Counted from the first letter of the stretch, positions 3,544 through 63,254 are shown. The stretch: 64,000 bases of DNA from an uncultured Acetatifactor sp. (GCA_964529395.1 CAZGVI010000013.1:5147-69146), one strand, 5' to 3'. Notes: generated by a model from the letters alone, not told the origin. Numbers and translations: made by a program.

Positions 3544-3579
3544 CCTTTTCACAGAAAATTCATGCTCTGCAATGTATTT

Positions 3580-3804
3580 TTATCTTCCTGCCGCGGCAAG
3601 TTCTTCCCTGGTGCAATTCGTTATCCTGCTGATAGAAGTGTCATCCAGTCCTGCCTTGGCCATCTGTCGGATGATTCGAAGCCTTTCCTCCCGCTTTCCT
3701 TCTTGTCTTCCCTCTCGCTTGCCTTCACGTTTTCCCTCTCGTTTTCCCTCACGTCTCCCCTCTCGCCGTTCTTCTCTCATCAGATCGTCAAAGGCTTTAC
3801 ACAT
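3580..3804 (-). CDS. Putative internally initiated small protein (RpnS-type intragenic antitoxin), copy A, 74 aa
   Basis: In-frame ATG at 3804 (MCKAFDDL..) preceded by AAGGAGG (3813-3819). Confidence 0.6.
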   Translation of the reverse strand: MCKAFDDLMREERREGRREGKREGKREGKREGRQEGKREERLRIIRQMAKAGLDDTSISRITNCTREELAAAGR

Positions 3805-4533
3805 GGGCAGTTCCTCCTTTTCTATCTTTTTCAACAATCTGGCTATATGCAGATGCCTTGCGATCACGCGCTCCGTCTCGGGACAGAGATGCCGGAACTC
3901 TTCGGTTTGAAACAGGGCCTTCAGCTTTCCTCTGTCCCTCCGGCATTGCATGGCCTTAAAAAACTCCTTCAGATCCGTATTATAATTGTCGGGATTGACA
4001 AAATCCGCCTCTATCAAGGGGAAATCATAGTCTCGAAGATTATCCCCCAACAATATTTGGGATTCCGCCGACATCCGAAACATCTGCGACAGTTTGCGTC
4101 TGCCTTCCCAGCGCCCCTCCTTCAAAAACAAAACCACCGTGACCATAGGAAAAAGGTACTCACTTTCTTTTATCCTGCTCTTCTTTTCACGATAATTTTT
4201 ATAATTCTTTTGATCCTTATGCTTTTGGCCGATCTCCCGCATCTGATATTCATACTCGCAGGCGTCGTATGTCATGATCCGCTCAGGCATCCCATAATCT
4301 GATTCCGTCTCAATCTCAATACCGTAACAAATATTTTGCCGCATATCTACCATCAGCACATCCCTCTCCATCTCGCTGTACGCATTGGAGAGTGCCGGAT
4401 ATTTCCTGTTCTGTAGCACAAGATCCCCCGGCCTGAGTACTTTTTCCCCGTGATAGAGCGCAATGTTCACAAGCTCCGCAAACCTTTCGCAATCGGAAAA
4501 ATACGGCCTGTCCGCAATATCTATTTTTCCCAT
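3580..4533 (-). CDS. Rpn/YhgA-like recombination-promoting nuclease (PD-(D/E)XK 'putative transposase'), copy A
   Basis: 317 aa; ERDVLM..GIEIET..D.GMPERIMTYD nuclease core, PMVTVVLF strand, C-terminal MCKAFDDL + (REGK)n + helical tail typical of Rpn family. Confidence 0.85.
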   Translation of the reverse strand: MGKIDIADRPYFSDCERFAELVNIALYHGEKVLRPGDLVLQNRKYPALSNAYSEMERDVLMVDMRQNICYGIEIETESDYGMPERIMTYDACEYEYQMREIGQKHKDQKNYKNYREKKSRIKESEYLFPMVTVVLFLKEGRWEGRRKLSQMFRMSAESQILLGDNLRDYDFPLIEADFVNPDNYNTDLKEFFKAMQCRRDRGKLKALFQTEEFRHLCPETERVIARHLHIARLLKKIEKEELPMCKAFDDLMREERREGRREGKREGKREGKREGRQEGKREERLRIIRQMAKAGLDDTSISRITNCTREELAAAGR

Positions 4534-4718
4534 ATACCCCTTTCCGGCCGTAAGGATACCGCATATGCATACTTTGCCACGGAACCGCTTTCAACCATAT
4601 TTGTATTGTCTGTGTGAAATATGGCTGATAACGCCGGAATCAGGGCGAGGCCGCTCCTGATAGGTCACCCTGGTCTGAGCAGGGTACAGAATTTCACAGA
4701 GAAGATTTTCTTCTATTT
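4534..4718 (-). ncRNA. Conserved structured 5' leader of Rpn copy A (candidate cis-regulatory or ncRNA element)
   Basis: About 185 nt between promoter and ATG, nearly identical to the copy B leader; multibranch stem-loop can be drawn by hand. Confidence 0.4.
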
Positions 4719-4724
4719 GAGGTT

Positions 4725-4753
4725 ATTATAAGAACTCTGATAAATATTGTCAA
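4725..4753 (-). promoter_or_regulatory. Perfect-consensus sigma-A promoter of Rpn copy A
   Basis: TTGACA (4748-4753) - 17 bp - TATAAT (4725-4730). Confidence 0.85.
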
Positions 4754-4796
4754 TTAAAAAATATGATTTCCTATATTCTTTATTCATTAAATACAC

Positions 4797-4825
4797 TTGT
4801 ATTTCGCTCCCCCTTTCCCTATAAT
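4797..4825 (+). promoter_or_regulatory. sigma-A promoter of the ORF at 4876
   Basis: TTGTAT - 17 bp - TATAAT. Confidence 0.6.
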
Positions 4826-4875
4826 TATCCATTATAAGATAGTCCATTATTGATTATAGAAAGAGGGAAAAGATT

Positions 4876-5304
4876 ATGACGGAAAAGCCTGAATATCTAT
4901 ACCATGGAAGTCAATATAAACTGGATATACTCATACCGCAGCAGGCCGCCGGTGAACAGAATATAGATTCTCTGAAAGCAATCTACGCTGCCGGAACCAT
5001 GGATGAAGTGATACCGTTCGCCCTGCCAATCCGCTGGTATCCGGATACCCCGGAGGGAAAGAGGAATTTCGAGTGCAGCAACGGAAAGGTTCTGTTAAAG
5101 TATGGTTCTTTAGACCCTGACGGCGTGGGATATGTATATAAGGTTCGTGCGGATTCCTTTGAAAAAATAGACGGATGGCAGTGGGTTTCACAGGAGAAAT
5201 GCTTGCCTGTAGAAATAATGGAAATAAAAGTGGCGGATTACCTTGACCGAGTGGAGTTTTCAGAAGAGGCGCAAAAAATCCAACAGCATTTGTTTCCTGA
5301 TTAA
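4876..5304 (+). CDS. Hypothetical protein, possible ADP-ribosyltransferase-like (Arr-type) fold
   Basis: 142 aa with RBS GAGGG; YLYHGS, AIYAA, GYVYKV and WQWVS motifs in the spacing of H-Y-E/Q clade ART proteins. Confidence 0.6.
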   Translation: MTEKPEYLYHGSQYKLDILIPQQAAGEQNIDSLKAIYAAGTMDEVIPFALPIRWYPDTPEGKRNFECSNGKVLLKYGSLDPDGVGYVYKVRADSFEKIDGWQWVSQEKCLPVEIMEIKVADYLDRVEFSEEAQKIQQHLFPD

Positions 5305-5317
5305 CAAAACAACTCGA

Positions 5318-5363
5318 AATAAGCCGGGAAACATCGCAAAAATGCGTCGTTCCCCGGCTTATT
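5318..5363. terminator. Stem-loop between convergent genes (probable bidirectional terminator)
   Basis: aataagccggg ... cccggcttatt inverted repeat. Confidence 0.6.
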
Positions 5364-5389
5364 ATACAGTACTACAGCCACTTCATAAA

Positions 5390-7723
5390 TCAGCAGTTTA
5401 CCACCATATGGGCAGCTTTGGGCGTTACCAGCGTGTCATTGCCTTCTATGCGGATATCCGCGCCGTCAGCGGACACGGCCTGCACATTTACCAGACGCAC
5501 CGTATAGGGCTTAACCGCCTCCACATCCAGAGTGACGGCTCCTGCATGGCGGGACGCCTTGATCGTCAGCGCCGCCTGCCTGTCCATGCCATAGACGGTC
5601 CGCTCCGTACTGGCTCCATTATGCAGCTCGTAGATCCGCAGTTCCACTCCGTCGGCGTAATCATAATCCGGCCTGTCGTCCCTGGCGCCCAGGGCGATAA
5701 TGGAACATTCCTTCACCATCATGGGCAGGCTGAAATAGTCATACTCAGCGCTGTACCACTTGCCGCCCTCCTGCACCTGACCGGTAAGAAAATCCGTCCA
5801 TGTGCCCTCGGGCAGATAGTACTCGCCGATCCCCTCCTCGTTGAAGATGGGAGCCACCAACAGGCTGTCGCCCAACATGTACTGCTTGTCCAGATAACTG
5901 CAGTTCTTATCAGAGGTATATTCCAACACCATGCTGCGCATGGTGGGGATGCCGGTGCGGTTGGTATAGATGGAAGTCTCATATAAATAAGGCATCAGCC
6001 GGGCTTTTTGCCGGGTGAAGAACCGGCACACATCCACCGCCTCCTCGTCATAGACCCAGGGCACCCGGTAAGAAGTGCTGCCATGGAGACGGCTGTGGGA
6101 GGACAGCAGGCCAAACGCCACCCACCTCTTGTATACATCCGGCGTGGAAGTGTGCTCAAAGCCGCCGATATCATGAGCCCAGAAACCAAAGCCGCTCATC
6201 AGCAGACTAAGACCTCCTCTGAGACTCTCCTCCATGGACTCATAATCGGACCAGCAATCGCCGCCCCAGTGTACCGGGAATTTCTGGCCTCCCACGGTGG
6301 CGGAACGGGCAAACAATACCGCCTCTCCCTTGCCCCGCTTTCTCTCCAGCAGCTCATAAACGCATTTATTGTACAGGTAAGTATAGTAATTGTGCATCTT
6401 CTTGGGGTCAGAGCCGTCAAAATATGCCGCGTCGGTGGGAATCCTCTCGCCGAAATCGGTCTTAAAGCAATCCACGCCCATGTCCAGCAGCACTTCCAGC
6501 TTGTCCTGGAACCATTTCCAGGCTTCCGGGTTGGTAAAGTCTACGATCGCCATGCCCGGCTGCCACATATCCCACTGATAGACCTGACCGTTAGGCCGCT
6601 TGATGAAATACCCTTTCTCCATGCCCTCCCTGAACAGATAGGACTCCTGGCCGATGTAGGAGTTGATCCACACGCAGATATTCAACCCTTTTTCCTTGAT
6701 GCGCCGCAGCAGTCCCTCCGGGTCGGGGAATATCCTCTCATCCCACAGAAAATCGGACCAATGAAATTCCTTCATCCAGCAGCAGTCAAAATGAAAGGTG
6801 CGCAGAGGAATGCCCCGGTCCAGCATACCGTCGATAAAGCTCATGACCGTATTCTCGTCGTAACTGGTGGTGAAGGAGGTGGACAGCCACAGTCCGAATG
6901 TCCAGGGCGCAGGCAGGGAAGGCTTGCCCGTGATATCCGTATAGGCTACCAGCACATCCTTCATGGCAGGCCCGTCAAACAGCATATAATCCAGATATCC
7001 GCCCTCCACGGAGAATTCCGCCCGGGTCACCATCTCCGTGCCAAGCTCCATAGATACGTTCTCCGGGTGGTTGATCAGCACGCCATACCCCTTATTGGAG
7101 ATATAAAAAGGAATGTTTTTGTATGCCTGCTCGGTGCTGGTGCCTCCGTCCGCATTCCAGATATCAATGCTCTGGCCGTTCTTGACAAAGGGAGTGAAAT
7201 GCTCGCCTGTGCCGTAAAGCAGTTCTCCCACGCCCAGAGACAACTGCTGGCGGATATAGGTGTCCGTGTTGTCCCCCCGGTCATAGTACTCGCCCTTCCA
7301 GTCGGTCTTCATCAGCGCCAGGTCTTTTCCGGTGCTGCGGGTCAGCAGCCTGCCGTCTCTCTTATAAGTCATAGACCAGGGTTTTTTTGTGATCTCCAGG
7401 GACAGATTGCCGCTCTTAACGGCGATCAGTTCGTCCGTCTCGGTCACATCCAGCGGGCACTCCTGCAGATTCAGTTCAAAGGCGGGCTCACATGTCACCG
7501 CGCCCAGATGATGATAGGTCTGCACCCGCAGTACATTCACTCTGGGGGAGGTGATCCTGACCGTCAGATTGATGCCGCCCAAAGTAGCTCCCTTGCTGTT
7601 AATATGGCCTGTGGGAGCGCAGATGCTTACCTCCGTATCCGTCTTTTTGATAAAATAGGCCTCCGTAGGCGCAAAACACCCGCAGCCCTCCTTTTGTAAC
7701 CAACATCCGTTACTGAATTTCAT
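5390..7723 (-). CDS. yicI: GH31 alpha-xylosidase
   Basis: 777 aa; MKFSNGCWL start, FKTDFGE nucleophile motif, WAHDIGGF acid/base motif. Confidence 0.93.
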   Translation of the reverse strand: MKFSNGCWLQKEGCGCFAPTEAYFIKKTDTEVSICAPTGHINSKGATLGGINLTVRITSPRVNVLRVQTYHHLGAVTCEPAFELNLQECPLDVTETDELIAVKSGNLSLEITKKPWSMTYKRDGRLLTRSTGKDLALMKTDWKGEYYDRGDNTDTYIRQQLSLGVGELLYGTGEHFTPFVKNGQSIDIWNADGGTSTEQAYKNIPFYISNKGYGVLINHPENVSMELGTEMVTRAEFSVEGGYLDYMLFDGPAMKDVLVAYTDITGKPSLPAPWTFGLWLSTSFTTSYDENTVMSFIDGMLDRGIPLRTFHFDCCWMKEFHWSDFLWDERIFPDPEGLLRRIKEKGLNICVWINSYIGQESYLFREGMEKGYFIKRPNGQVYQWDMWQPGMAIVDFTNPEAWKWFQDKLEVLLDMGVDCFKTDFGERIPTDAAYFDGSDPKKMHNYYTYLYNKCVYELLERKRGKGEAVLFARSATVGGQKFPVHWGGDCWSDYESMEESLRGGLSLLMSGFGFWAHDIGGFEHTSTPDVYKRWVAFGLLSSHSRLHGSTSYRVPWVYDEEAVDVCRFFTRQKARLMPYLYETSIYTNRTGIPTMRSMVLEYTSDKNCSYLDKQYMLGDSLLVAPIFNEEGIGEYYLPEGTWTDFLTGQVQEGGKWYSAEYDYFSLPMMVKECSIIALGARDDRPDYDYADGVELRIYELHNGASTERTVYGMDRQAALTIKASRHAGAVTLDVEAVKPYTVRLVNVQAVSADGADIRIEGNDTLVTPKAAHMVVNC

Positions 7724-7821
7724 CGCATATCCTCCATTCCTATATATTTACCCGCCGATGCAGATCCGCAGGTACTTTTTCATATACCTTTAGCATACCA
7801 GAGAAACGCATAAATTGCACG

Positions 7822-7866
7822 AAAAAAATAAATAAAAAGGAATAGACCCCATAGAATCTATTCCTT
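7822..7866 (-). terminator. Rho-independent terminator after the GH43 gene
   Basis: aaggaataga/tctattcctt stem followed by a U-rich tract on the minus strand. Confidence 0.7.
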
Positions 7867-7905
7867 CCGATATCCGATGATTTTGCAGGCAGAAATCCGC
7901 CTGTG

Positions 7906-8880
7906 TCAAACCTGTTTCCGATAGGCAAATATCGGCCTGTCGTTTTCGTCCCACTCCACTTTCATCAGCATGGCGTGACGGTTTGGATCCGCCAGAGAAT
8001 CGCCGATGATCTCCTCATAAGTGCGGGCATGGTAGACGCAGATATCGTTGCCCTCCCTGTCCTTGGTAAAACTGTTGTGGCCGGGGCCGTATATACCCTT
8101 TTCCGCATCCGTAGCCAGCACAGGGTAACGCTCCTTGGTCCAGCTCCTGGGGTCTAACAGATCCGCGTCCTCCGTGGTGCTGAGCATGCCCATGCAATAG
8201 CAGGCGCCGGTGGCGCTGGCGGAATACGTCAGATAGATATGCCCGTTATGTTTTACCGCCGCAGGCCCCTCATTGACCCAAAAGCCGATCCGCTCCCAGT
8301 CATAGTCAGGCGTGGTCAGCAGCACCTGCACCGTAGCCAGCTTTGTACCCGATTCCATCCGGGCGATATACAGGTTGGATATCTGGTCTCCCACGCTGAC
8401 CTTCTCCGCCCAAATAAAATAATACGCACCCTTATTTTCCAGAACCGTGGCATCCAGGGAAAACGCGCGAAAAGAAAATCTGTCCTCGTCGACGCACTGC
8501 ATCTGGCCTCTCTCTATCCAGGCGTCCGTCATGGGATCCTGGCCGCCGCACTCCAATACATAGGGACGGATATGCCACCAATTGTCTTTGTCATCCCCGG
8601 CAAAATAAATATACCACTTTCCAAACAGATAATGTATCTCCGGCGCCCATATGTGATCGCTCATAGGGCCGCTCTCATGGCGGGTCCACACTGTGATCTC
8701 CTCCGCTTGGGCCAGTCCTTCTATAGTATCCGCATGGCGCAGGATGATCCTGTCATAGGCCGGAACGGAGGCGGTAAAATAATAGCTGCCGTCCGGCGCC
8801 TGGCCTACAAACGGATCTGCCCGCTGGAGGATAAAGGGCTTATTGTATTCCGTAATGGGTCCGTTGATTTTCTGTTCCAT
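7906..8880 (-). CDS. GH43 alpha-L-arabinofuranosidase
   Basis: QRADP, WAPEIH, SLDATV and VNEGP motifs; likely start MEQKING at 8880 (track start 8904). Confidence 0.9.
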   Translation of the reverse strand: MEQKINGPITEYNKPFILQRADPFVGQAPDGSYYFTASVPAYDRIILRHADTIEGLAQAEEITVWTRHESGPMSDHIWAPEIHYLFGKWYIYFAGDDKDNWWHIRPYVLECGGQDPMTDAWIERGQMQCVDEDRFSFRAFSLDATVLENKGAYYFIWAEKVSVGDQISNLYIARMESGTKLATVQVLLTTPDYDWERIGFWVNEGPAAVKHNGHIYLTYSASATGACYCMGMLSTTEDADLLDPRSWTKERYPVLATDAEKGIYGPGHNSFTKDREGNDICVYHARTYEEIIGDSLADPNRHAMLMKVEWDENDRPIFAYRKQV

Positions 8881-8951
8881 ACATTCCTCTCTCCTACATA
8901 TCACAGGCTATGCCTTCAGGCTTAATTTGACTCTACGCATTCACATTGCGG

Positions 8952-10454
8952 TCATATCTCCACCGCCAAATGCAGCACACTGCATGCCGGGATCGTAAAC
9001 TTCAGGTTCTGTCCCGCGATCTCCACCCGGTCAAACCGCTCTGTGTGTACCGCGTCAGGGTCTTCAAAGGTATTGTGCGCGTGCATCTCTCCGGTAAGGA
9101 TCGTGCCCTCCACTCCTTTGATGGCGGTTTCGGTGAATACCGCGTCTATATCATAACTCTCTGTCACGGACAGATTGTTCAAAGTCACATGGATCCTGCC
9201 GTCCTTGCCCAGAGTCACAGACTCGTGAAGGTTGGGCACTTTCCCGTCCTCGCCGCCGATCTCCTGAGTCTCCACATAACTCTCCAACAGCTCCGCGTCC
9301 TGATGGTACTTGTACATGTTGAACACATGATAAGTGGGCGTCTTGATCATCTTCTCGCCCTCGGTCAGGATCACGGACTGCAGCACATTCACCAGCTGGG
9401 CAATATTGGCCATCTTCACACGGTCGCAATGTTTGTTGAAAATATTCAGGTTGATGCCTGCCACCAGCGCGTCTCTCATGGTGTTCTGCTGATACAGGAA
9501 ACCGGGGTTTGTACCGGGCTCCACATCGTACCAGGTACCCCACTCGTCTATGATAAGTCCGATCTTTTTCTCGGGATCATACCTGTCCATGATCGCGCCG
9601 TGGCCCTTGATCAGATCCTCCATGTGCAGAGTCTTCCTCAATGTCCTGTAATAGCTCTTCTCGTCAAAATCCAGCGCGCTGCCCTTATGGCTCCAGTCGT
9701 CATTGGGAAGCGTATAATAGTGCAGGGACAGGCCGTTCATAAATCCATGGGCATGCTCCGCATGGTCGTGGGTAGTCTTCAATACGCCCTCGGTCCAATA
9801 GTAGTCGCCCGCATTGGCGCCGCAGCACACCTTGAATATCTCCTCGCCCTTCTTATAGTTCCGCACATATGTCTGATATCTGCGGTACAGGTTTCCGTAA
9901 TACTCAGGGGTCATATTACCGCCGCAGCCCCAGTTCTCGTTGCCCACGCCGAAATAGTCCACCTTCCAGCTCTCGGGATGGCCGTTTTTTGCCCGCAGAT
10001 CCGCCATGGGGGAGACGCCCTCAAAAGTCATATACTCCACCCACTCGCTCATCTCCTGCACCGTCCCGCTGCCCACATTGCCGTTGATATATGTCTTACA
10101 GCCCAACTGGCGGCACAGTTCCATGAACTCATGCGTACCGAAACTGTTGTCCTCCACCACTCCACCCCAATGGGTGTTGATCATCTTTTTGCGGCTCTCC
10201 TTGGGGCCGATGCCGTCCATCCAATGATACTCGTCGGCAAAGCAGCCACCCGGCCAGCGCAGTACCGGAATCTGCATTTCTTTAAGGGCCTCCACCACGT
10301 CGTTGCGGATACCGCCCGTATTTGGGATGTCGGAATCTTCGCCCACATATAGCCCCTCATAAATGCATCTTCCCAGATGCTCGGAAAAGTGTCCCTGTAA
10401 CTCCGGATTAACATGACCTAGCGGATGCTTGGGGTTTACGTACAATTTTGCCAT
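8952..10454 (-). CDS. abfA: GH51 alpha-L-arabinofuranosidase (cytoplasmic)
   Basis: 500 aa; [42 protein letters not shown]. Confidence 0.93.
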
Positions 10455-10519
10455 AGTTTAGTCCTCGCTTTATGTTTTATTTTTTACTAAAATAGTATAC
10501 TTTCCCCTTAACTTCTTTA

Positions 10520-10548
10520 ATAGTAGTATGAAATACAATCAATGTCAA
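10520..10548 (-). promoter_or_regulatory. sigma-A promoter of the abfA-GH43 operon
   Basis: TTGACA (10543-10548) - 17 bp - TACTAT (10520-10525). Confidence 0.7.
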
Positions 10549-10663
10549 CACAATCCGTAAAATAAGTTTCACAGTTTTTAGAATTATTTTTTAGGCATAT
10601 TTACCTTGTGTATAAATGGTCCAAATTTTTGTAAAATCTACATCATTTTGAACTGCTATAGCA

Positions 10664-10691
10664 TTGACTTTACTTTATGAAATGTTATAAT
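10664..10691 (+). promoter_or_regulatory. sigma-A promoter of the ArsR-family regulator
   Basis: TTGACT - 16 bp - TATAAT. Confidence 0.6.
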
Positions 10692-10743
10692 AAAAATAGA
10701 AATTGAGCAAAAGAAGTCTGGATTTTTGAGAAAGAGGGTTTTT

Positions 10744-11670
10744 ATGTTATATTTTCAATCTATCGGGGAAGCAGAAACAGTTTTTAAGGCCTTGAGCACT
10801 CCCATGCGCCTGAAGATCATGGAGATGATCTATAAAGACGATAAGCTGAGCATGAATGATCTGGCGGAAGCTCTGGGGCTGACCAACGGTGCCATCTCCA
10901 TGCACGTGAGCAAACTGGAGGAGGCCGGTCTGGTAAAGATCCGCACCACCTCCGGCAAGAGAGGGACCATGAAGATCATTCGTCCCCGATACGACCGTCT
11001 GATAATCGATCTTGCGCCTATAAAGGATGTACGGCACTGCTATACGGACGATATCCAGGTCGGTTACTACACCACCTGCAGCGTATCTCCCACCTGCGGA
11101 CTGGCTACCAGCAAGGAGATCATCGGTTCCCTGGACGACGCCCGGGTATTCTCTTTTCCGGAAAGATTTAAAGCGGGCATCCTGTGGTTTGGCAGCGGCT
11201 ATGTGGAGTACAATCTGCCCAATCACCTACAGGCCGGCCAAACCCTGACAGAACTGCAGATATCCTTTGAGATCTCTTCGGAATGTCCGGAATACAATGA
11301 GGACTACCCCTCGGATATCCATTTTTCCATCAATGGGATCAGTCTGGGCATGTGGGTAAGCCCCGGCGATTTCGGCGCACGCAAGGGATATCTCTGCCCC
11401 GCCTGGTGGCCCGAGCTGCTGAATCAATACGGTCTGTTAAAAACTCTGATCATCAATAACGAAGGCTGCTTTATCGACGGAACCAACAAGATCTCTGACG
11501 TGACGATTCAGGATCTTGACCTCAATTATAACAGCTATATCAGTTTCCGTTTTGAAGTGCCCAAGGACACTGCCAACGTGGGAGGATGCACTTTGTTTGG
11601 GGAAGATTTCGGAGACTATAACCAGGCTATCAAGGTGAAAGCCTATTACGAAGAAGAGAATGAAGGGTAG
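10744..11670 (+). CDS. ArsR-family HTH transcriptional regulator (probable arabinan-locus regulator)
   Basis: N-terminal wHTH (VFKALSTPMRLKIM..LAEALGLTNGAISMHVSKLEEAGLV) plus long C-terminal domain; divergent from abfA; ATG at 10744 after GAGG. Confidence 0.85.
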   Translation: MLYFQSIGEAETVFKALSTPMRLKIMEMIYKDDKLSMNDLAEALGLTNGAISMHVSKLEEAGLVKIRTTSGKRGTMKIIRPRYDRLIIDLAPIKDVRHCYTDDIQVGYYTTCSVSPTCGLATSKEIIGSLDDARVFSFPERFKAGILWFGSGYVEYNLPNHLQAGQTLTELQISFEISSECPEYNEDYPSDIHFSINGISLGMWVSPGDFGARKGYLCPAWWPELLNQYGLLKTLIINNEGCFIDGTNKISDVTIQDLDLNYNSYISFRFEVPKDTANVGGCTLFGEDFGDYNQAIKVKAYYEEENEG

Positions 11671-11713
11671 ACGCCCTTTTTATGGACGTTTCTGTATATA
11701 CGTATGACATGCA

Positions 11714-13249
11714 TTATTTCACTTCGTATATTGCATCCTTCATATACCAATTCGCAACCAATCCGCTTATCATCCCCGAATCGTCGTAGGACATTTCTGT
11801 ATCGCTGTTTATCCACAGGGGATAGGGATGATTGCTATACGGCTGCACATAGACCACCTTTTCTTCATTTCTGTACAATTGCAGACGCTGTAGATATTCA
11901 TGCCAATATAAATTTCCCTCGCCATCCGCGATCAGCCTGTATGCCCCATAATTTACAAAAGTAGCCTTTTTACTCACATCATCCAATCTGATGAAACTGA
12001 TGATGCCTGTCAGCAAAGCTATTAACAATACCACTGTCCATCTCATGACATTTTTTCCGTATCTGGGAATCATCGCCCTGGCCGCTTTTACTCTGTGAAC
12101 CAGCCATCCACACCAATAGGCCTCCAGCAGCACCAAACACAGCAGTAAAAACATTTTGCAGATGTTTTGATTTCTTGACAAAGGTTCTTCGCCCAAAGCA
12201 TAAAATCCCGGCGCAAACATAGATGCATAGAGGCAATATGTCGCCCCCGTCACCAGCAGCGGGCAGCGAAAGGAGTATTTGCTGTTATCAGCAGCTCTCA
12301 AAAACATGGGCAGCAGCAAGATCAATATCACGATCACATATATGTTGATCCAGGCAGTCATCTGTGAGAACGAATAAGCAAAACTCTTCCCTATCGTGCC
12401 TATAATACTTCCCCGCTGAAAATTTGCCTGTCTCACCGCATTGCCCGGGGCTAATACATTTACCAGGAATCCTGACTCCCCGATCAAAAAAGGAATCGCA
12501 AACCATAGATAGGTCTTCCTTCCCTGAACTTTCCATAATATTACTGCCAGAATCCCCAATAACACCAATATCTCCGCCGTTAACAGCGTCGTTGAAAAAT
12601 TACCTCCGGCCGCCATGAACGCCGCCCCTGTACATATTGCCAGTTCAATACACCACCAAATACTCTTACCCCGGTTGTGAAATATTCTCTCAAAGCTTAA
12701 CAGGGCAAACCCCGCCATCAAATTGACGAAACCCTGCATAAACACATAGTGGACAGCGCCATTATACCAATATAGACCAGAGGCCGGTGTATACATAAAC
12801 GCGCACTGCATAACGCATGACGCCATCACTGCGGACATACAGGTGTAGCCATCCAGCTCCATCCATCTCTTTAAAAGTGCATGCATAAAAACCATTGTGG
12901 AAATACATGTCATACCGATCATCATATAAGGTACGGCATGTGCATATTGTTCTCCAAACGCCATGGGTGAAATTGAAAAAAAGAAAACAGAGCTATATGT
13001 TCCCTGCCAGCTTTTATAGAATTCCGCGACTTTAGAAAACGCCGTCTTTATAACCTCTATCAGATTATGAGTGTTCAGCCATGTACAATGTACATGAAAC
13101 GCAAACCAGTAGTCGTCTCCTGCCCCATGATTGTATCGCCCTATATACAGCAGAGGTACTATGAACCACAAAAAGCCTAATACAGCAAAACAACAGAATA
13201 CTTTTCGAGTTAAGAATTTCCTCTCCAATTTGTCAATCCAATTCTTCAT
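11714..13249 (-). CDS. Multi-pass membrane protein, DUF6056/GT-C glycosyltransferase-like
   Basis: 511 aa, many hydrophobic segments, DDY motif in the loop after TM1, APGN motif; visibly more AT-rich than neighbours. Confidence 0.6.
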   Translation of the reverse strand: MKNWIDKLERKFLTRKVFCCFAVLGFLWFIVPLLYIGRYNHGAGDDYWFAFHVHCTWLNTHNLIEVIKTAFSKVAEFYKSWQGTYSSVFFFSISPMAFGEQYAHAVPYMMIGMTCISTMVFMHALLKRWMELDGYTCMSAVMASCVMQCAFMYTPASGLYWYNGAVHYVFMQGFVNLMAGFALLSFERIFHNRGKSIWWCIELAICTGAAFMAAGGNFSTTLLTAEILVLLGILAVILWKVQGRKTYLWFAIPFLIGESGFLVNVLAPGNAVRQANFQRGSIIGTIGKSFAYSFSQMTAWINIYVIVILILLLPMFLRAADNSKYSFRCPLLVTGATYCLYASMFAPGFYALGEEPLSRNQNICKMFLLLCLVLLEAYWCGWLVHRVKAARAMIPRYGKNVMRWTVVLLIALLTGIISFIRLDDVSKKATFVNYGAYRLIADGEGNLYWHEYLQRLQLYRNEEKVVYVQPYSNHPYPLWINSDTEMSYDDSGMISGLVANWYMKDAIYEVK

Positions 13250-13392
13250 AAAAATATGATCGTTTCACAAAGCACAAAATAAATATGAAACGGCTCCCTT
13301 CGCATTATAGTCCATCATTTGTACTATTATATCCGCTTTGTTTCTTTGTGTCTACCTCTCACCCCAAATTTTACTTTTTTTACATTTTTTAG

Positions 13393-13421
13393 TTGACAAT
13401 ATTTATCGGAGTTCCTATAAT
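13393..13421 (+). promoter_or_regulatory. Perfect-consensus sigma-A promoter of Rpn copy B
   Basis: TTGACA (13393-13398) - 17 bp - TATAAT (13416-13421). Confidence 0.85.
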
Positions 13422-13427
13422 GATTTC

Positions 13428-13612
13428 AAATAGATGAAAATCTTCTCTGTGAAATTCTGTACCCTGCTCAGACCAGGGTAACCTATCAGGAGCGGCCTCG
13501 CCCTGATTCCGGCGTTATCAGCCATATTTCACACAGACAATACAAATATGGTTGAAAGCGGTTCCGTGGCAAAGTATGCATATGCGGTATCCTTACGGCC
13601 GGAAAGGGGTAT
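13428..13612 (+). ncRNA. Conserved structured 5' leader of Rpn copy B
   Basis: Outer stem 13448-13455/13526-13533 enclosing hairpins 13460-13480, 13485-13507 and 13511-13523. Confidence 0.4.
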
Positions 13613-14542
13613 ATGGGAAAAATAGATATTGCGGACAGGCCGTATTTTTCCGATTGCGAAAGGTTTGCGGAGCTTGTGAACATTGCGCTCTATCACGGGG
13701 AAAAAGTACTCAGGCCGGGGGATCTTGTGCTACAGAACAGGAAATATCCGGCACTCTCCAATGCGTACAGCGAGATGGAGAGGGATGTGCTGATGGTAGA
13801 TATGCGGCAAAATATTTGTTACGGTATTGAGATTGAGACGGAATCAGATTATGGGATGCCTGAGCGGATCATGACATACGACGCCTGCGAGTATGAATAT
13901 CAGATGCGGGAGATCGGCCAAAAGCATAAGGATCAAAAGAATTATAAAAATTATCGTGAAAAGAAGAGCAGGATAAAAGAAAGTGAGTACCTTTTTCCTA
14001 TGGTCACGGTGGTTTTGTTTTTGAAGGAGGGGCGCTGGGAAGGCAGACGCAAACTGTCGCAGATGTTTCGGATGTCGGCGGAATCCCAAATATTGTTGGG
14101 GGATAATCTGCGAGACTATGATTTCCCCTTGATAGAGGCGGATTTTGTCAATCCTGACAACTATGATACGGATCTGAAGGAGTTTTTTAAGGCCATGCAA
14201 TGCCGGAGGGACAGAGAAAAGCTGAAGACCTTGTTTCAAACCGAAGAGTTTCGGCATCTCTGTCCCGAGACGGAGCGCGTGATCGCAAGGCATCTGCATG
14301 TAGCCAGATTGTTAAAAAAGATAGAAAAGGAGGAACTGCCCATGTGTAAAGCTTTTGACGATCTGATGAGAGAAGAACGACGAGAAGGAAGACGTGAGGG
14401 AAAACGAGAGGGAAGACAAGAGGGAAAGCGGGAGGAAAGACTTCGGATCATCCGACAGATGGCCAAGGCAGGACTGGATGACACTTCTATCAGCAGAATA
14501 ACCAATTGCACCAGGGAGGAACTTGCCGCGGCGGGAAGGTAA
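13613..14542 (+). CDS. Rpn/YhgA-like recombination-promoting nuclease, copy B
   Basis: 309 aa; differs from copy A by 4 substitutions and two fewer REGK repeats. Confidence 0.85.
   Translation: MGKIDIADRPYFSDCERFAELVNIALYHGEKVLRPGDLVLQNRKYPALSNAYSEMERDVLMVDMRQNICYGIEIETESDYGMPERIMTYDACEYEYQMREIGQKHKDQKNYKNYREKKSRIKESEYLFPMVTVVLFLKEGRWEGRRKLSQMFRMSAESQILLGDNLRDYDFPLIEADFVNPDNYDTDLKEFFKAMQCRRDREKLKTLFQTEEFRHLCPETERVIARHLHVARLLKKIEKEELPMCKAFDDLMREERREGRREGKREGRQEGKREERLRIIRQMAKAGLDDTSISRITNCTREELAAAGR
14342..14542 (+). CDS. Putative internally initiated small protein (RpnS-type intragenic antitoxin), copy B, 66 aa
   Basis: AAGGAGG at 14327-14333, in-frame ATG at 14342 (MCKAFDDL..). Confidence 0.6.
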   Translation: MCKAFDDLMREERREGRREGKREGRQEGKREERLRIIRQMAKAGLDDTSISRITNCTREELAAAGR

Positions 14543-14581
14543 AAATACATTGCCTGTTAGCCCCTCTGAAATAAATCTATT

Positions 14582-14614
14582 AAAAAAGGAACTGCCATCG
14601 CGACAGTTCCTTTT
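14582..14614. terminator. Bidirectional terminator between Rpn copy B and the LamG lipoprotein gene
   Basis: aaaaggaactg ... cagttcctttt with A/T tracts on both sides. Confidence 0.75.
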
Positions 14615-14633
14615 ACAATTTACTCTCAAGATC

Positions 14634-52999: not shown

Positions 53000-53260
53000 A
53001 TAACATAAGAAAAGCCATGACGGAAAAAAGTAGTTCGCAACGAATCATCCAGAGAGAGCAGCATATTGGTGAGAGCCGCTTATGAGGACTGCCTACGAAA
53101 ACCATTCCCGAGCCGCAGCGCCGAAATCAGATGTAAGCGCCGCCGTACGCCTGCGTTAAAGGATAGGATTTATTGGAATCTGAAGTGAAAAGTTAAGGTG
53201 GAACCGTGCAGACGCACCCTTAAGACTGTATACAATGGTCTTATGGGTGCTTTTCTTATG
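53000..53260 (+). ncRNA. T-box riboswitch (Thr specifier ACC)
   Basis: AGTA and AGAGA/GAG stem I motifs, GAAA-ACC specifier at 53101-53103, T-box AAGGTGGAACCGTG at 53195-53208, terminator gcaccc..gggtgc-tttt. Confidence 0.9.
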
Positions 53261-62368: not shown

Positions 62369-63254
62369 AACGGTTAAACTGAATCCGGCTATATACATAT
62401 TTTCCCTCGATCTCTTCGACTTCCTCCCACTCGATCTCCCTGTATGCCATGCTTTCGTTTTCTTCGACATAATAGCCGGGATAGTCATTTTCTGTAGAAT
62501 AATAAATACTGCCATTATAAAAATGGACGGCCTCTATCAACTTCATCTCTGTTCCCTCATAAGTATAATAGATATCCACCGAGTCCGCCGCTCCGTCAGA
62601 GCCCTCGTTGGCTATACTGCCGTCTTCACAGAGATAATAACGGTTGCGCTCTCCCCCCGAAAATACATGTACCAGCTCTCCGTCCGCAATGGTATAAAGG
62701 TCATATATTACACCATTCCATGCGCCGCTGCCGTTTTCTCCAAAGATCAGCTCTTCTATTCCATTCCCGTCCAGATCAAGAAGAGTATATCCCGCTGATT
62801 CATAAATTTTATAGAATGCATATATATAACACAAGGAAAAATTGAAATTATCCTCTATTTCATCTTCAAAATAGTCTTCACGGCCAATTAACGCATTCTG
62901 CGCTTTCTCGATCAGCGCATCATATTCTGAATATCCAGTGCTGATCTCGGGAATCACTATATTCTCCGGTTCAGAACTGTCTGCACTCTCCGGCTCGGAA
63001 CTGTCCGCACTCTCCGGCTCTGCGTCGTCTGTACCTTCCGGCTCAGAACTGTCTGCACTCTCCGGCTCTGCGTCGTCTGTGCTTTCCGGTTCGGAACTGT
63101 CTGCACTCTCCGCTGCGGCGCTGTCTGTACTCTCAGCTGCGGCATCCTGCCTGTCCGCGTTAGAGCAAGCGCTCAATGCCGCGCAGGCGACGACAGTTAT
63201 TGCCGCCGCCAGAAACATGGCTTTTTTTAAAAATGCAGATATAGATCTATTCAT
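62343..63254 (-). CDS. Hypothetical lipoprotein with 8-aa tandem-repeat stalk
   Basis: Lipobox ALSAC; (ESADSSEP)-type repeats; DLDGNGIEEL Ca-binding-like motif; start at 63254 after GGAG. Confidence 0.8.
   Translation of the reverse strand: MNRSISAFLKKAMFLAAAITVVACAALSACSNADRQDAAAESTDSAAAESADSSEPESTDDAEPESADSSEPEGTDDAEPESADSSEPESADSSEPENIVIPEISTGYSEYDALIEKAQNALIGREDYFEDEIEDNFNFSLCYIYAFYKIYESAGYTLLDLDGNGIEELIFGENGSGAWNGVIYDLYTIADGELVHVFSGGERNRYYLCEDGSIANEGSDGAADSVDIYYTYEGTEMKLIEAVHFYNGSIYYSTENDYPGYYVEENESMAYREIEWEEVEEIEGKYVYSRIQFNRFIEILQEK
62967..63134 (-). repeat. 24-bp coding tandem repeat x7
   Basis: ESTDSAAA ESADSSEP ESTDDAEP ESADSSEP EGTDDAEP ESADSSEP ESADSSEP. Confidence 0.9.

Follow-up and report, generated by a model that had tools for sequence, protein, structure and literature searches.

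The DNA analysed here is a 64,000-nt stretch from an uncultured Acetatifactor sp. (GCA_964529395.1 CAZGVI010000013.1:5147-69146; hereafter the window, with positions counted from its start), in which two inverted copies of a 1.17-1.19-kb unit, each carrying a gene for an Rpn-like protein, flank an 8.6-kb sugar-utilisation block. The explanation that best joins the observations, and that we consider probable, is that the units are self-contained cassettes of a divergent Rpn toxin-antitoxin (TA) system with a repressive leader, that the pair goes back to an old local duplication followed by ongoing homologous exchange, and that the enclosed block is resident. What is new here is a divergent Rpn subfamily, a conserved and uncatalogued structured leader, and natural alleles that vary in repeat number or have lost the toxin.

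Unit A (3569-4762, minus strand) comprises a promoter, a leader, the Rpn-like coding sequence (CDS) and a further 11 bp, and unit B (13384-14553, plus strand) is a secondary inverted copy of the same cassette. A repeat search of the whole window returned two pairs of inverted arms, 3705-4762/13384-14441 (1058 nt, 97%) and 3569-3742/14380-14553, split solely by a 24-bp indel, and found no third copy of the unit in the 64 kb. When A and B were aligned, identity ran from ~9 nt 5' of TTGACA to 11 nt past the stop codon (TAAAAATACATTGC), with unrelated flanks on both sides. Each unit opens with a sigma-70 promoter, TTGACA-N17-TATAAT, which matches the consensus at 12/12 positions in unit B (13393-13421, plus strand) and is mirrored in unit A (4725-4753, minus strand); the same promoter architecture is found in nearly all aligned family members, the exceptions being L006 and L010. 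The initial annotation had described an inverted ~1.2-kb pair with sharp shared ends, lying 5' of a perfect -35 box and 11 bp past the stop, and both the pair and its limits were recovered by the repeat search and the alignment. It had also reported neither terminal inverted repeats nor a target duplication, and we likewise found no direct repeat around unit A or unit B and, at the unit ends, a best local inverted match of only 7-8 AT-rich nt. Its term 'near-identical' is apt for the copies overall but not for their parts: the promoters are 86.8% identical and the leaders 99.4%, the CDSs agree completely (100%) in their first 497 nt, and the 3' thirds reach ~95%, with the 24-bp indel in addition. 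The central ~670 bp are ~100% identical, and the copies share a perfect stretch of 629 bp.

Rpn genes are genes-within-genes that encode a toxic nuclease, RpnL, and, from an internal start, a small antitoxin, RpnS, and in Escherichia coli such modules act in phage defence (PMC10400941). The RpnL-like CDS of unit A (3580-4533, minus strand) encodes 317 aa with a PD-(D/E)XK-like N-domain and a helical C-domain; that of unit B (13613-14542, plus strand) encodes 309 aa and differs by N185D, G202E, A206T, I230V and two fewer 4-aa repeats. The protein matched TIGR01784, the NCBIfam Rpn model, at E=2.1e-9 (protein 37-313 against profile 35-271 of 273), as did 34/43 homologs (best 1e-11), and 18/43 homologs matched PF04754 (YhgA-like Transposase_31; best 2e-4). 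In addition, residues 5-251 matched a Selenomonas plasmid gene annotated as Rpn family (tblastn, E=4e-7). The AlphaFold (AF2) model has a predicted local distance difference test (pLDDT) score of 86.7, and its fold neighbours, though weak, include many PD-(D/E)XK-type nucleases. The C-terminus of the model superposes on the E. coli RpnA-S crystal structure 7TH0, the sole PDB sequence match of the protein (Foldseek probability 0.95, TMt 0.69, root-mean-square deviation 1.4 A, 39% identity). Furthermore, hhalign aligned the last 40 residues with E. coli RpnA (probability 84%, E=7.6e-6, 40% identity). D58, D63, E73 and E75 are invariant in the 43 homologs and lie on the predicted beta-strands 59-63 and 68-75. 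The PD-(D/E)XK catalytic residues of RpnA are D63, E82 and Q84 (PMC5350276); by analogy, D58/E73/E75 may form the catalytic triad of a putative nuclease.

Several results weigh against placing these proteins in the Rpn family. The two copies score 37.6 and 32.4 bits with TIGR01784, under the curated cutoff of 52.1, and neither on its own matched a Pfam family at E<=0.001. Foldseek matches of the model to nucleases were weak (E>=0.1), hhalign left the N-domain unaligned to E. coli RpnA, and the putative third catalytic residue is E75 where RpnA has Q/K. Two further searches were negative: PADLOC gave no defence-family match, and exact-protein look-ups with both Rpn proteins of the window and the M3 peptidase returned nothing. 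Because the scores fall below the NCBIfam cutoff and no Pfam family is matched, we file the proteins as a divergent Rpn branch rather than as canonical members, and the family assignment of the initial annotation stands in this form. The gene is best filed as a divergent Rpn-type gene-within-a-gene (LS) module with presumptive toxicity and nuclease activity.

Two decayed family members were encountered among the relatives. One (L010:10001-13399) has a ~2.4 kb interruption between residues ~229 and ~205, and the other (L011:10001-10513) has an internal deletion equivalent to window 4084-4509; judged from these two, toxin inactivation appears frequent in the family. Among the homologs L035, L036, L041 and also L038-L040, several that have the same leader head polysaccharide-biosynthesis clusters, after LytR_cpsA_psr and before FdtA/DegT/Bac_transf or Bac_transf/GT8, and others lie between an AraC regulator and a lacto-N-biose phosphorylase. 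Family homologs are recurrently associated with carbohydrate and surface loci.

In published Rpn systems, RpnL and RpnS share a helix of four-residue repeats whose number varies between strains and which starts 8-20 residues past the RpnS start; the repeat number decides which RpnS neutralises which RpnL (PMC10400941). The window has a candidate for each of these parts. A GGAGG-N8-ATG motif occurs at Met244 in both copies, and Met244 is nearly invariant among the 43 homologs. The candidate RpnS open reading frame (ORF) of unit B (14342-14542, plus strand) has 66 aa, is preceded by GGAGG at 14329-14333 at a distance of 8 nt and has the C-terminus that matches RpnA-S; that of unit A (3580-3804, minus strand) has 74 aa, with GGAGG upstream at 3813-3817. 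A motif search placed the internal start in 11/15 sequences, all of which keep the Shine-Dalgarno (SD)-ATG pair, and did not locate the start in the other four. The xxxG repeats begin 12 residues past Met244. Unit A has six of them (RREG RREG KREG KREG KREG RQEG; 3697-3768, minus strand, with the extra 24 bp at 3718-3741) and unit B has four (RREG RREG KREG RQEG; 14378-14425, plus strand), the remnant in strain L048 has three, and the number ranges from 1 to 8 across 94 relatives. No consensus-like internal promoter was detected in the unit. From its sequence and its likeness to the E. coli genes, the internal GGAGG-N8-AUG at Met244 would yield a separate RpnS antitoxin. The three natural repeat-number alleles (6, 4 and 3) in one species offer material for tests of repeat-number specificity.

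Between the promoter and the start codon lies a leader of ~190 nt that is kept in all 18 distinct family members examined, whose proteins range down to ~48% identity. In unit B (13424-13612, plus strand) it holds the hairpins P0, P2, P3 and P4 and an invariant 28-nt core, GATTCCGGCGTTATCAGCCATATTTCAC, at 13505-13532; the core contains the anti-SD TTCCGGC (13507-13513), whose predicted partner strand GCCGGAA (13598-13604) overlaps the SD GGAAAGGGG. The corresponding positions in unit A (leader 4534-4722, minus strand) are 4614-4641 for the core, 4633-4639 for the anti-SD and 4542-4548 for the SD-side strand. The stems of P0, P2 and P3 are wholly different between lineages and their pairing is always kept. 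P4 is invariant (CAGCCAT/ATGGCTG), and its loop strand ATTTCAC is complementary to GTGAAAT upstream, with which it forms a possible pseudoknot. The helix between the invariant UUCCGGC and GCCGGAA, at the 5' edge of the SD, was predicted by both RNAalifold and RNAfold. A covariance-model search of 520 kb found one leader 5' of each Rpn-like gene and none elsewhere. When pairs were counted across the alignment, 90.6% of cells were paired, compared to at most 49% with the partners slid; 14 pairs had changed on both sides, changes of this kind being seen in P0, P2 and P3, and the covariation score was reached by 0/500 shuffles.

On the other side of the balance for the leader, these statistics come from only ~7-8 independent lineages, and the alignment that was counted had been fitted to the model, with P2 misaligned in short-form leaders. 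Helices P1, P4 and P6 never vary, and therefore covariation cannot confirm them. Run X14, which is labelled as RNA, covers genes and spacers alike and gives no information on transcription start sites. Rfam 15 (4227 families) gave no leader match at the gathering score or at E<=10, the literature search found no paper that describes this leader or such a leader for E. coli rpn genes, and the core was absent from the viral contigs searched. Two other functions were rejected: a conserved upstream ORF at the invariant ATGGCTG, whose spacing to the main ATG covers all three frames in different relatives and which has no SD ahead of it, and a transcription attenuator, for which no U-tract terminator follows the variable hairpin. 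The leader probably represses translation of RpnL by sequestering the SD, and as such it offers a handle on a question posed by the Rpn authors, namely how RpnL expression or activity is controlled and released.

Leaders of individual relatives also vary. One (L019:190-367) is chimeric, with a 5' half identical to the L007 type and a 3' half identical to the L004 type joined at the 28-nt invariant core, which reflects either recombination between paralogs at the core or a chimeric assembly. An A-site copy (L012:1-60) has a different sequence directly 3' of the -10 box (TATAATCTCGAGTTTGACACTTGTGAAAG...); thus the 5' end of the leader, the P0 region, varies between strains.

The history of the two copies was read from relatives. 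Contigs of the same species were found only by searching for contigs that encode proteins of the locus; scans of metagenomes and genomes for close relatives gave no same-species locus. Unit A occupies the ancestral orthologous site 5' of the M3 peptidase gene, with orthologs at the same site in L001, L011 and L048-L054. The islet that houses unit B is variable, and the unit is missing from L001, L011, L048, L050 and L051. In the sister species (L001, L011/L031; ~86% identity), the order M3 peptidase-Rpn-GH31-GH43-GH51-ArsR-LamG is colinear with the window and only the A-site gene is present, carrying an internal deletion in L011; window 11671-14633 corresponds there to a spacer of 150 bp that contains two terminator-like hairpins. 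A closer clade (L048-L054; 95-97% identity) has lost window 3897-4531, that is, the start codon and RpnL residues 1-212, and retains the promoter, the leader, the internal SD-ATG and the C-terminus that contains the three-repeat RpnS. From its sequence this allele looks like an orphan antitoxin, and a natural allele that has lost the toxin and kept the antitoxin is ready material for tests.

Of the empty sites that the initial annotation had suggested looking for, the B site is empty in L048, and unit B alone is missing in L050/L051, which have the 511-aa DUF6056/GT_STM0557_N gene of the islet without the unit. What these strains lack (13361-14568) is unit B together with flanking sequence of 23 bp and 15 bp, and the site holds 72 unrelated bp instead. 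In L042 (~85% identity), a HicB-like antitoxin module (L042:261-1516) fills the unit B slot (window 13273-14568; boundaries 13272 and 14569), and four extra genes follow the DUF6056 gene. The same-species contigs L012 and L013 have the 511-aa gene and unit B as in the window. The islet was found in several states: empty, with the DUF6056 gene only, with the DUF6056 gene and unit B, and with the HicB module replacing unit B. With Rpn and HicB modules taking each other's place beside a GtrC-like surface-modification gene, the slot appears to be a swappable one for TA/defence genes. That unit B and the 511-aa gene arrived as one module was rejected, since the gene occurs without unit B in L050/L051 and no further Rpn homolog adjoins a DUF6056 gene. 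Published rpn genes are gained and lost as single genes, with variable ends and without terminal repeats or target duplications (PMC10400941), and unit B fits this pattern: it was gained as one gene within a variable islet, its ends are imprecise, and a target duplication is lacking.

Throughout the same-species data, A and B are found at the same two sites. Their 3' thirds are 5% diverged, compared with ~98.6% identity between the same-species contigs and the window; the duplication must therefore be old, and it predates the divergence of the strains. The block between the units keeps its place and orientation in relatives with a single or remnant Rpn copy, which shows that the sugar genes belong to the resident chromosome and are not cargo. 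The perfectly identical centre of the units next to the diverged 3' third points to recent gene conversion between A and B.

In the mechanism that we propose, the consensus sigma-70 promoter would drive a constitutive mRNA with the ~190-nt structured leader, and RpnL translation would be held low because the anti-SD UUCCGGC pairs with the start of the ribosome-binding site, until a signal remodels the leader. The internal RpnS start would stay unsequestered, and, on the strength of the sequence and the E. coli precedent, the antitoxin would be made separately; the toxic nuclease RpnL would then be held in check twice, by SD sequestration in the leader and by RpnS. If the E. coli precedent applies, the six-repeat and four-repeat pairs should not cross-neutralise; the A and B pairs would be mutually orthogonal, and the duplication would therefore diversify defence specificity. 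Copy A sits at the ancestral site, and copy B would have arisen by an illegitimate, local duplication without a transposase, inverted, into the nearby variable islet before the strains diverged. Homologous recombination between the 1.2-kb repeats would have homogenised the 5' two-thirds and left mosaic patches, and in principle the same recombination could flip the 8.6-kb sugar-utilisation block as a by-product.

That last step leads to a tentative possibility, compatible with the old duplication and leaning to the unlikely side, namely that 4763-13383 is naturally invertible by homologous crossover and that both orientations coexist in populations and matter. The 629 bp of perfect identity is an ample RecA substrate, and in L014 and L015 the promoter region of unit B carries an A-type patch at 13415-13435; patches of this kind are evidence that A and B recombine. 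One 1.6-kb MEGAHIT contig from another sample (L016) has the junction expected of an inversion: it starts in the upstream flank of B (100% over 83 nt), has B-type sites to 14446, continues with A-type sites from 3625 and runs into the downstream flank of A and the M3 gene (99.5%), the switch being confined to 51 bp, which is less than the final k of 99 used by the assembler. However, this is a single contig, and a conversion tract combined with a mis-join in the shared repeat would look alike; the four other contigs that span unit B (L012-L015) are in the reference arrangement, and the Logan contigs of public runs break inside the 1.2-kb repeat. Neither a recombinase gene, in or beside 3569-14553, nor short specific sites were found. 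Moreover, each recombinant copy keeps the full cassette, so that inversion would rewire no promoter, and with no recombinase and no promoter rewired a programmed switch is unlikely.

Rather doubtful is the idea that the leader belongs to a new class of sensory RNAs, whether riboswitch-like or responsive to a protein or phage factor, that shut RpnL translation by sequestering the ribosome-binding site and open on infection or stress. Its 28-nt core might in addition be a hotspot at which paralogs recombine and exchange leaders and genes, as the L019 chimera suggests. If true, a sensory leader would be the trigger step so far missing from Rpn toxin-antitoxin defence.

We think it improbable that the cassette is a new autonomous mobile element with defined ends recognised by the Rpn nuclease itself. 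A and B do share sharp ends, the nucleotide homology of distant paralogs in other genomes also starts at the -35 region, close strains can differ by the presence of unit B alone, and some genomes have several family members (L001 and L003 are from a single metagenome-assembled genome). However, the promoter is where the homology of any conserved cassette would start, and the unit ends vary, because the L050/L051 indel, which takes in 23 bp and 15 bp outside the unit and has 72 unrelated bp in its place, and the L042 boundaries (13272 and 14569) differ. Only two copies exist in the 64 kb, at sites that are fixed across strains, with 3' thirds 5% diverged. The initial annotation had seen in the unit a self-contained mobile cassette without insertion sequence (IS) ends. 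Gain and loss of the unit on its own, without IS ends, is upheld by L050/L051, which lack 13361-14568; recent or autonomous mobility is not, given the same two sites in all same-species data and the diverged 3' thirds. A cassette without IS ends is thus a correct description, yet one of behaviour already published for rpn genes (PMC10400941).

Far less credible still, and contradicted by the relatives, is the reading of the units as arms of a composite transposon, or of the new composite mobile element put forward as a candidate in that annotation, by which the GH31/GH43/GH51/ArsR block would be mobilised. It has geometry in its favour and nothing else: a gene for which 'putative transposase' is a frequent annotation stands on either side of 8.6 kb, in inverted and near-identical copies. 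The block lies at the same M3-LamG site, in the same orientation, in every relative examined, including the one-copy genomes L001 and L011 and the clade L048-L054 with its truncated copy, of which L048, L050 and L051 lack unit B. The flanking ABC-transporter and carbohydrate-active enzyme (CAZyme) genes continue the same locus outside the units, terminal repeats and a target duplication are lacking, Rpn proteins are not transposases according to published work (PMC10400941), and at the DNA level the unit was found on no plasmid or phage. Finally, an assembly artefact, either a duplicated repeat or the collapsed one that the initial annotation had allowed for, can be dismissed, because A and B differ at at least 30 diagnostic sites and by the 24-bp indel and both junctions of both copies, four in all, recur in independent public runs and assemblies.

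The resident core block (5390-11670) consists of a GH31 gene (5390-7723, minus strand), a GH43 gene (7906-8904, minus strand), a GH51-type arabinofuranosidase gene (Alpha-L-AF_C; 8952-10454, minus strand) and an ArsR-type regulator gene (10726-11670, plus strand), and as a whole it is syntenic and colinear in all relatives examined. Between unit A and the block lies a segment of presence/absence type (4785-5308, plus strand) that carries a 142-aa ORF (4876-5304); it is replaced by TTTAAAT in the rat-gut strains X9 and X17 and in L012 and is absent in L001. Contigs that encode the 142-aa protein of the window strain proved too short to be of use. The protein is a member of a well-conserved Clostridia family whose N-terminal HGS is invariant, and its model (pLDDT 90) has as its only distinct fold match the rifampin ADP-ribosyltransferase (ART) Arr (2HW2; probability 0.87, TM 0.38), which lends weak support to its earlier labelling as ART-like. 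On the other side, the variable islet (11671-14633, from the ArsR stop to the LamG stop) holds unit B and the gene for the 511-aa membrane protein (11714-13249, minus strand), which has a promoter-like site at 13326-13354 (minus strand); its DUF6056/GT_STM0557_N assignment agrees with the earlier label of a GT-C-like neighbour of unit B.

Other features of the window were noted in passing. In run X9, a rat-gut metagenome, contigs diverge on either side of a shared 24-nt stretch (11669-11692) into sequence with inverted termini (AGACTGTAGACAA... / ...TTGTCTACAGTCT), which suggests a strain-specific insertion of a small element just 3' of the ArsR-type gene. In run X2, a contig joint of low depth (7.8 compared to ~35), which the contigs alone do not explain, connects 14828, within the LamG gene, to 4508, near the beginning of the CDS of unit A, and has an additional T. 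A T-box leader (RF00230) was found at 53008-53224 on the plus strand (96.1 bits, E=7.6e-20). Seven tandem 24-nt units, from a family of 72-nt repeats, occupy 62941-63156 in what is apparently a repetitive Ser/Gly/Glu-rich coding region, and a 75-nt inverted repeat (38050-38124/60527-60601) is 83% complementary, with arms 22.4 kb apart.

Compared with known systems, the locus resembles composite transposons of the Tn10 and Tn5 type in having two inverted, near-identical ~1.2-kb copies around several kb of metabolic genes. It differs from them in lacking a transposase, terminal inverted repeats and a target duplication, and in enclosing genes that are syntenic core in relatives without the second copy. 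The tempting picture of a sugar locus that is bracketed by nucleases and can move or invert gives way to that of an old and ordinary duplication of paralogs of a known defence-gene type, which cautions against over-annotating Rpn pairs as transposons. With inversions that arise by homologous recombination between IS copies, rRNA operons or duplicated genes it shares long inverted repeats, here perfectly identical over 629 bp, together with mosaic or conversion tracts and one contig with a recombinant junction. Unlike a programmed phase-variation switch, it has no dedicated invertase and no promoter switching, and the other orientation is suggested by L016 only.

The leader is similar to translational riboswitches and other SD-sequestering leaders in its long 5' untranslated region, invariant core, compensatory hairpins and a segment complementary to the ribosome-binding region. 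It differs from riboswitches in that it has no Rfam match, in that the gene it would control is a toxin/defence gene and not a metabolic gene, and in that its three most conserved helices lie beyond the covariation test.

The closest parallel is with the E. coli RpnA-E and plasmid RpnP2 LS toxin-antitoxin and antiphage systems (Kingston 2017, PMC5350276; Zhong et al. 2023, PMC10400941). The cassettes described here differ from these in that their proteins are very distant in sequence, below the NCBIfam cutoff and without a Pfam match on their own, with a putative triad of D58/E73/E75 instead of D63/E82/Q84, and in that the units have no consensus-like internal promoter detected and carry a conserved ~190-nt structured leader with an anti-SD. 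They share with them a long protein with a putative N-terminal PD-(D/E)XK-type (Transposase_31-like) domain, C-terminal ~40 residues homologous to RpnA-S down to the EELAAA tail, a predicted internal start from which a small C-terminal protein would be translated, a variable number of four-residue repeats beginning 8-20 residues past the RpnS Met (12 here), paralogs in one genome, and gain and loss as single genes with variable ends and no terminal repeats or target duplications. The 'antitoxin within a toxin' architecture of E. coli Rpn would thereby extend to a very divergent subfamily of gut Lachnospiraceae (Acetatifactor-like).

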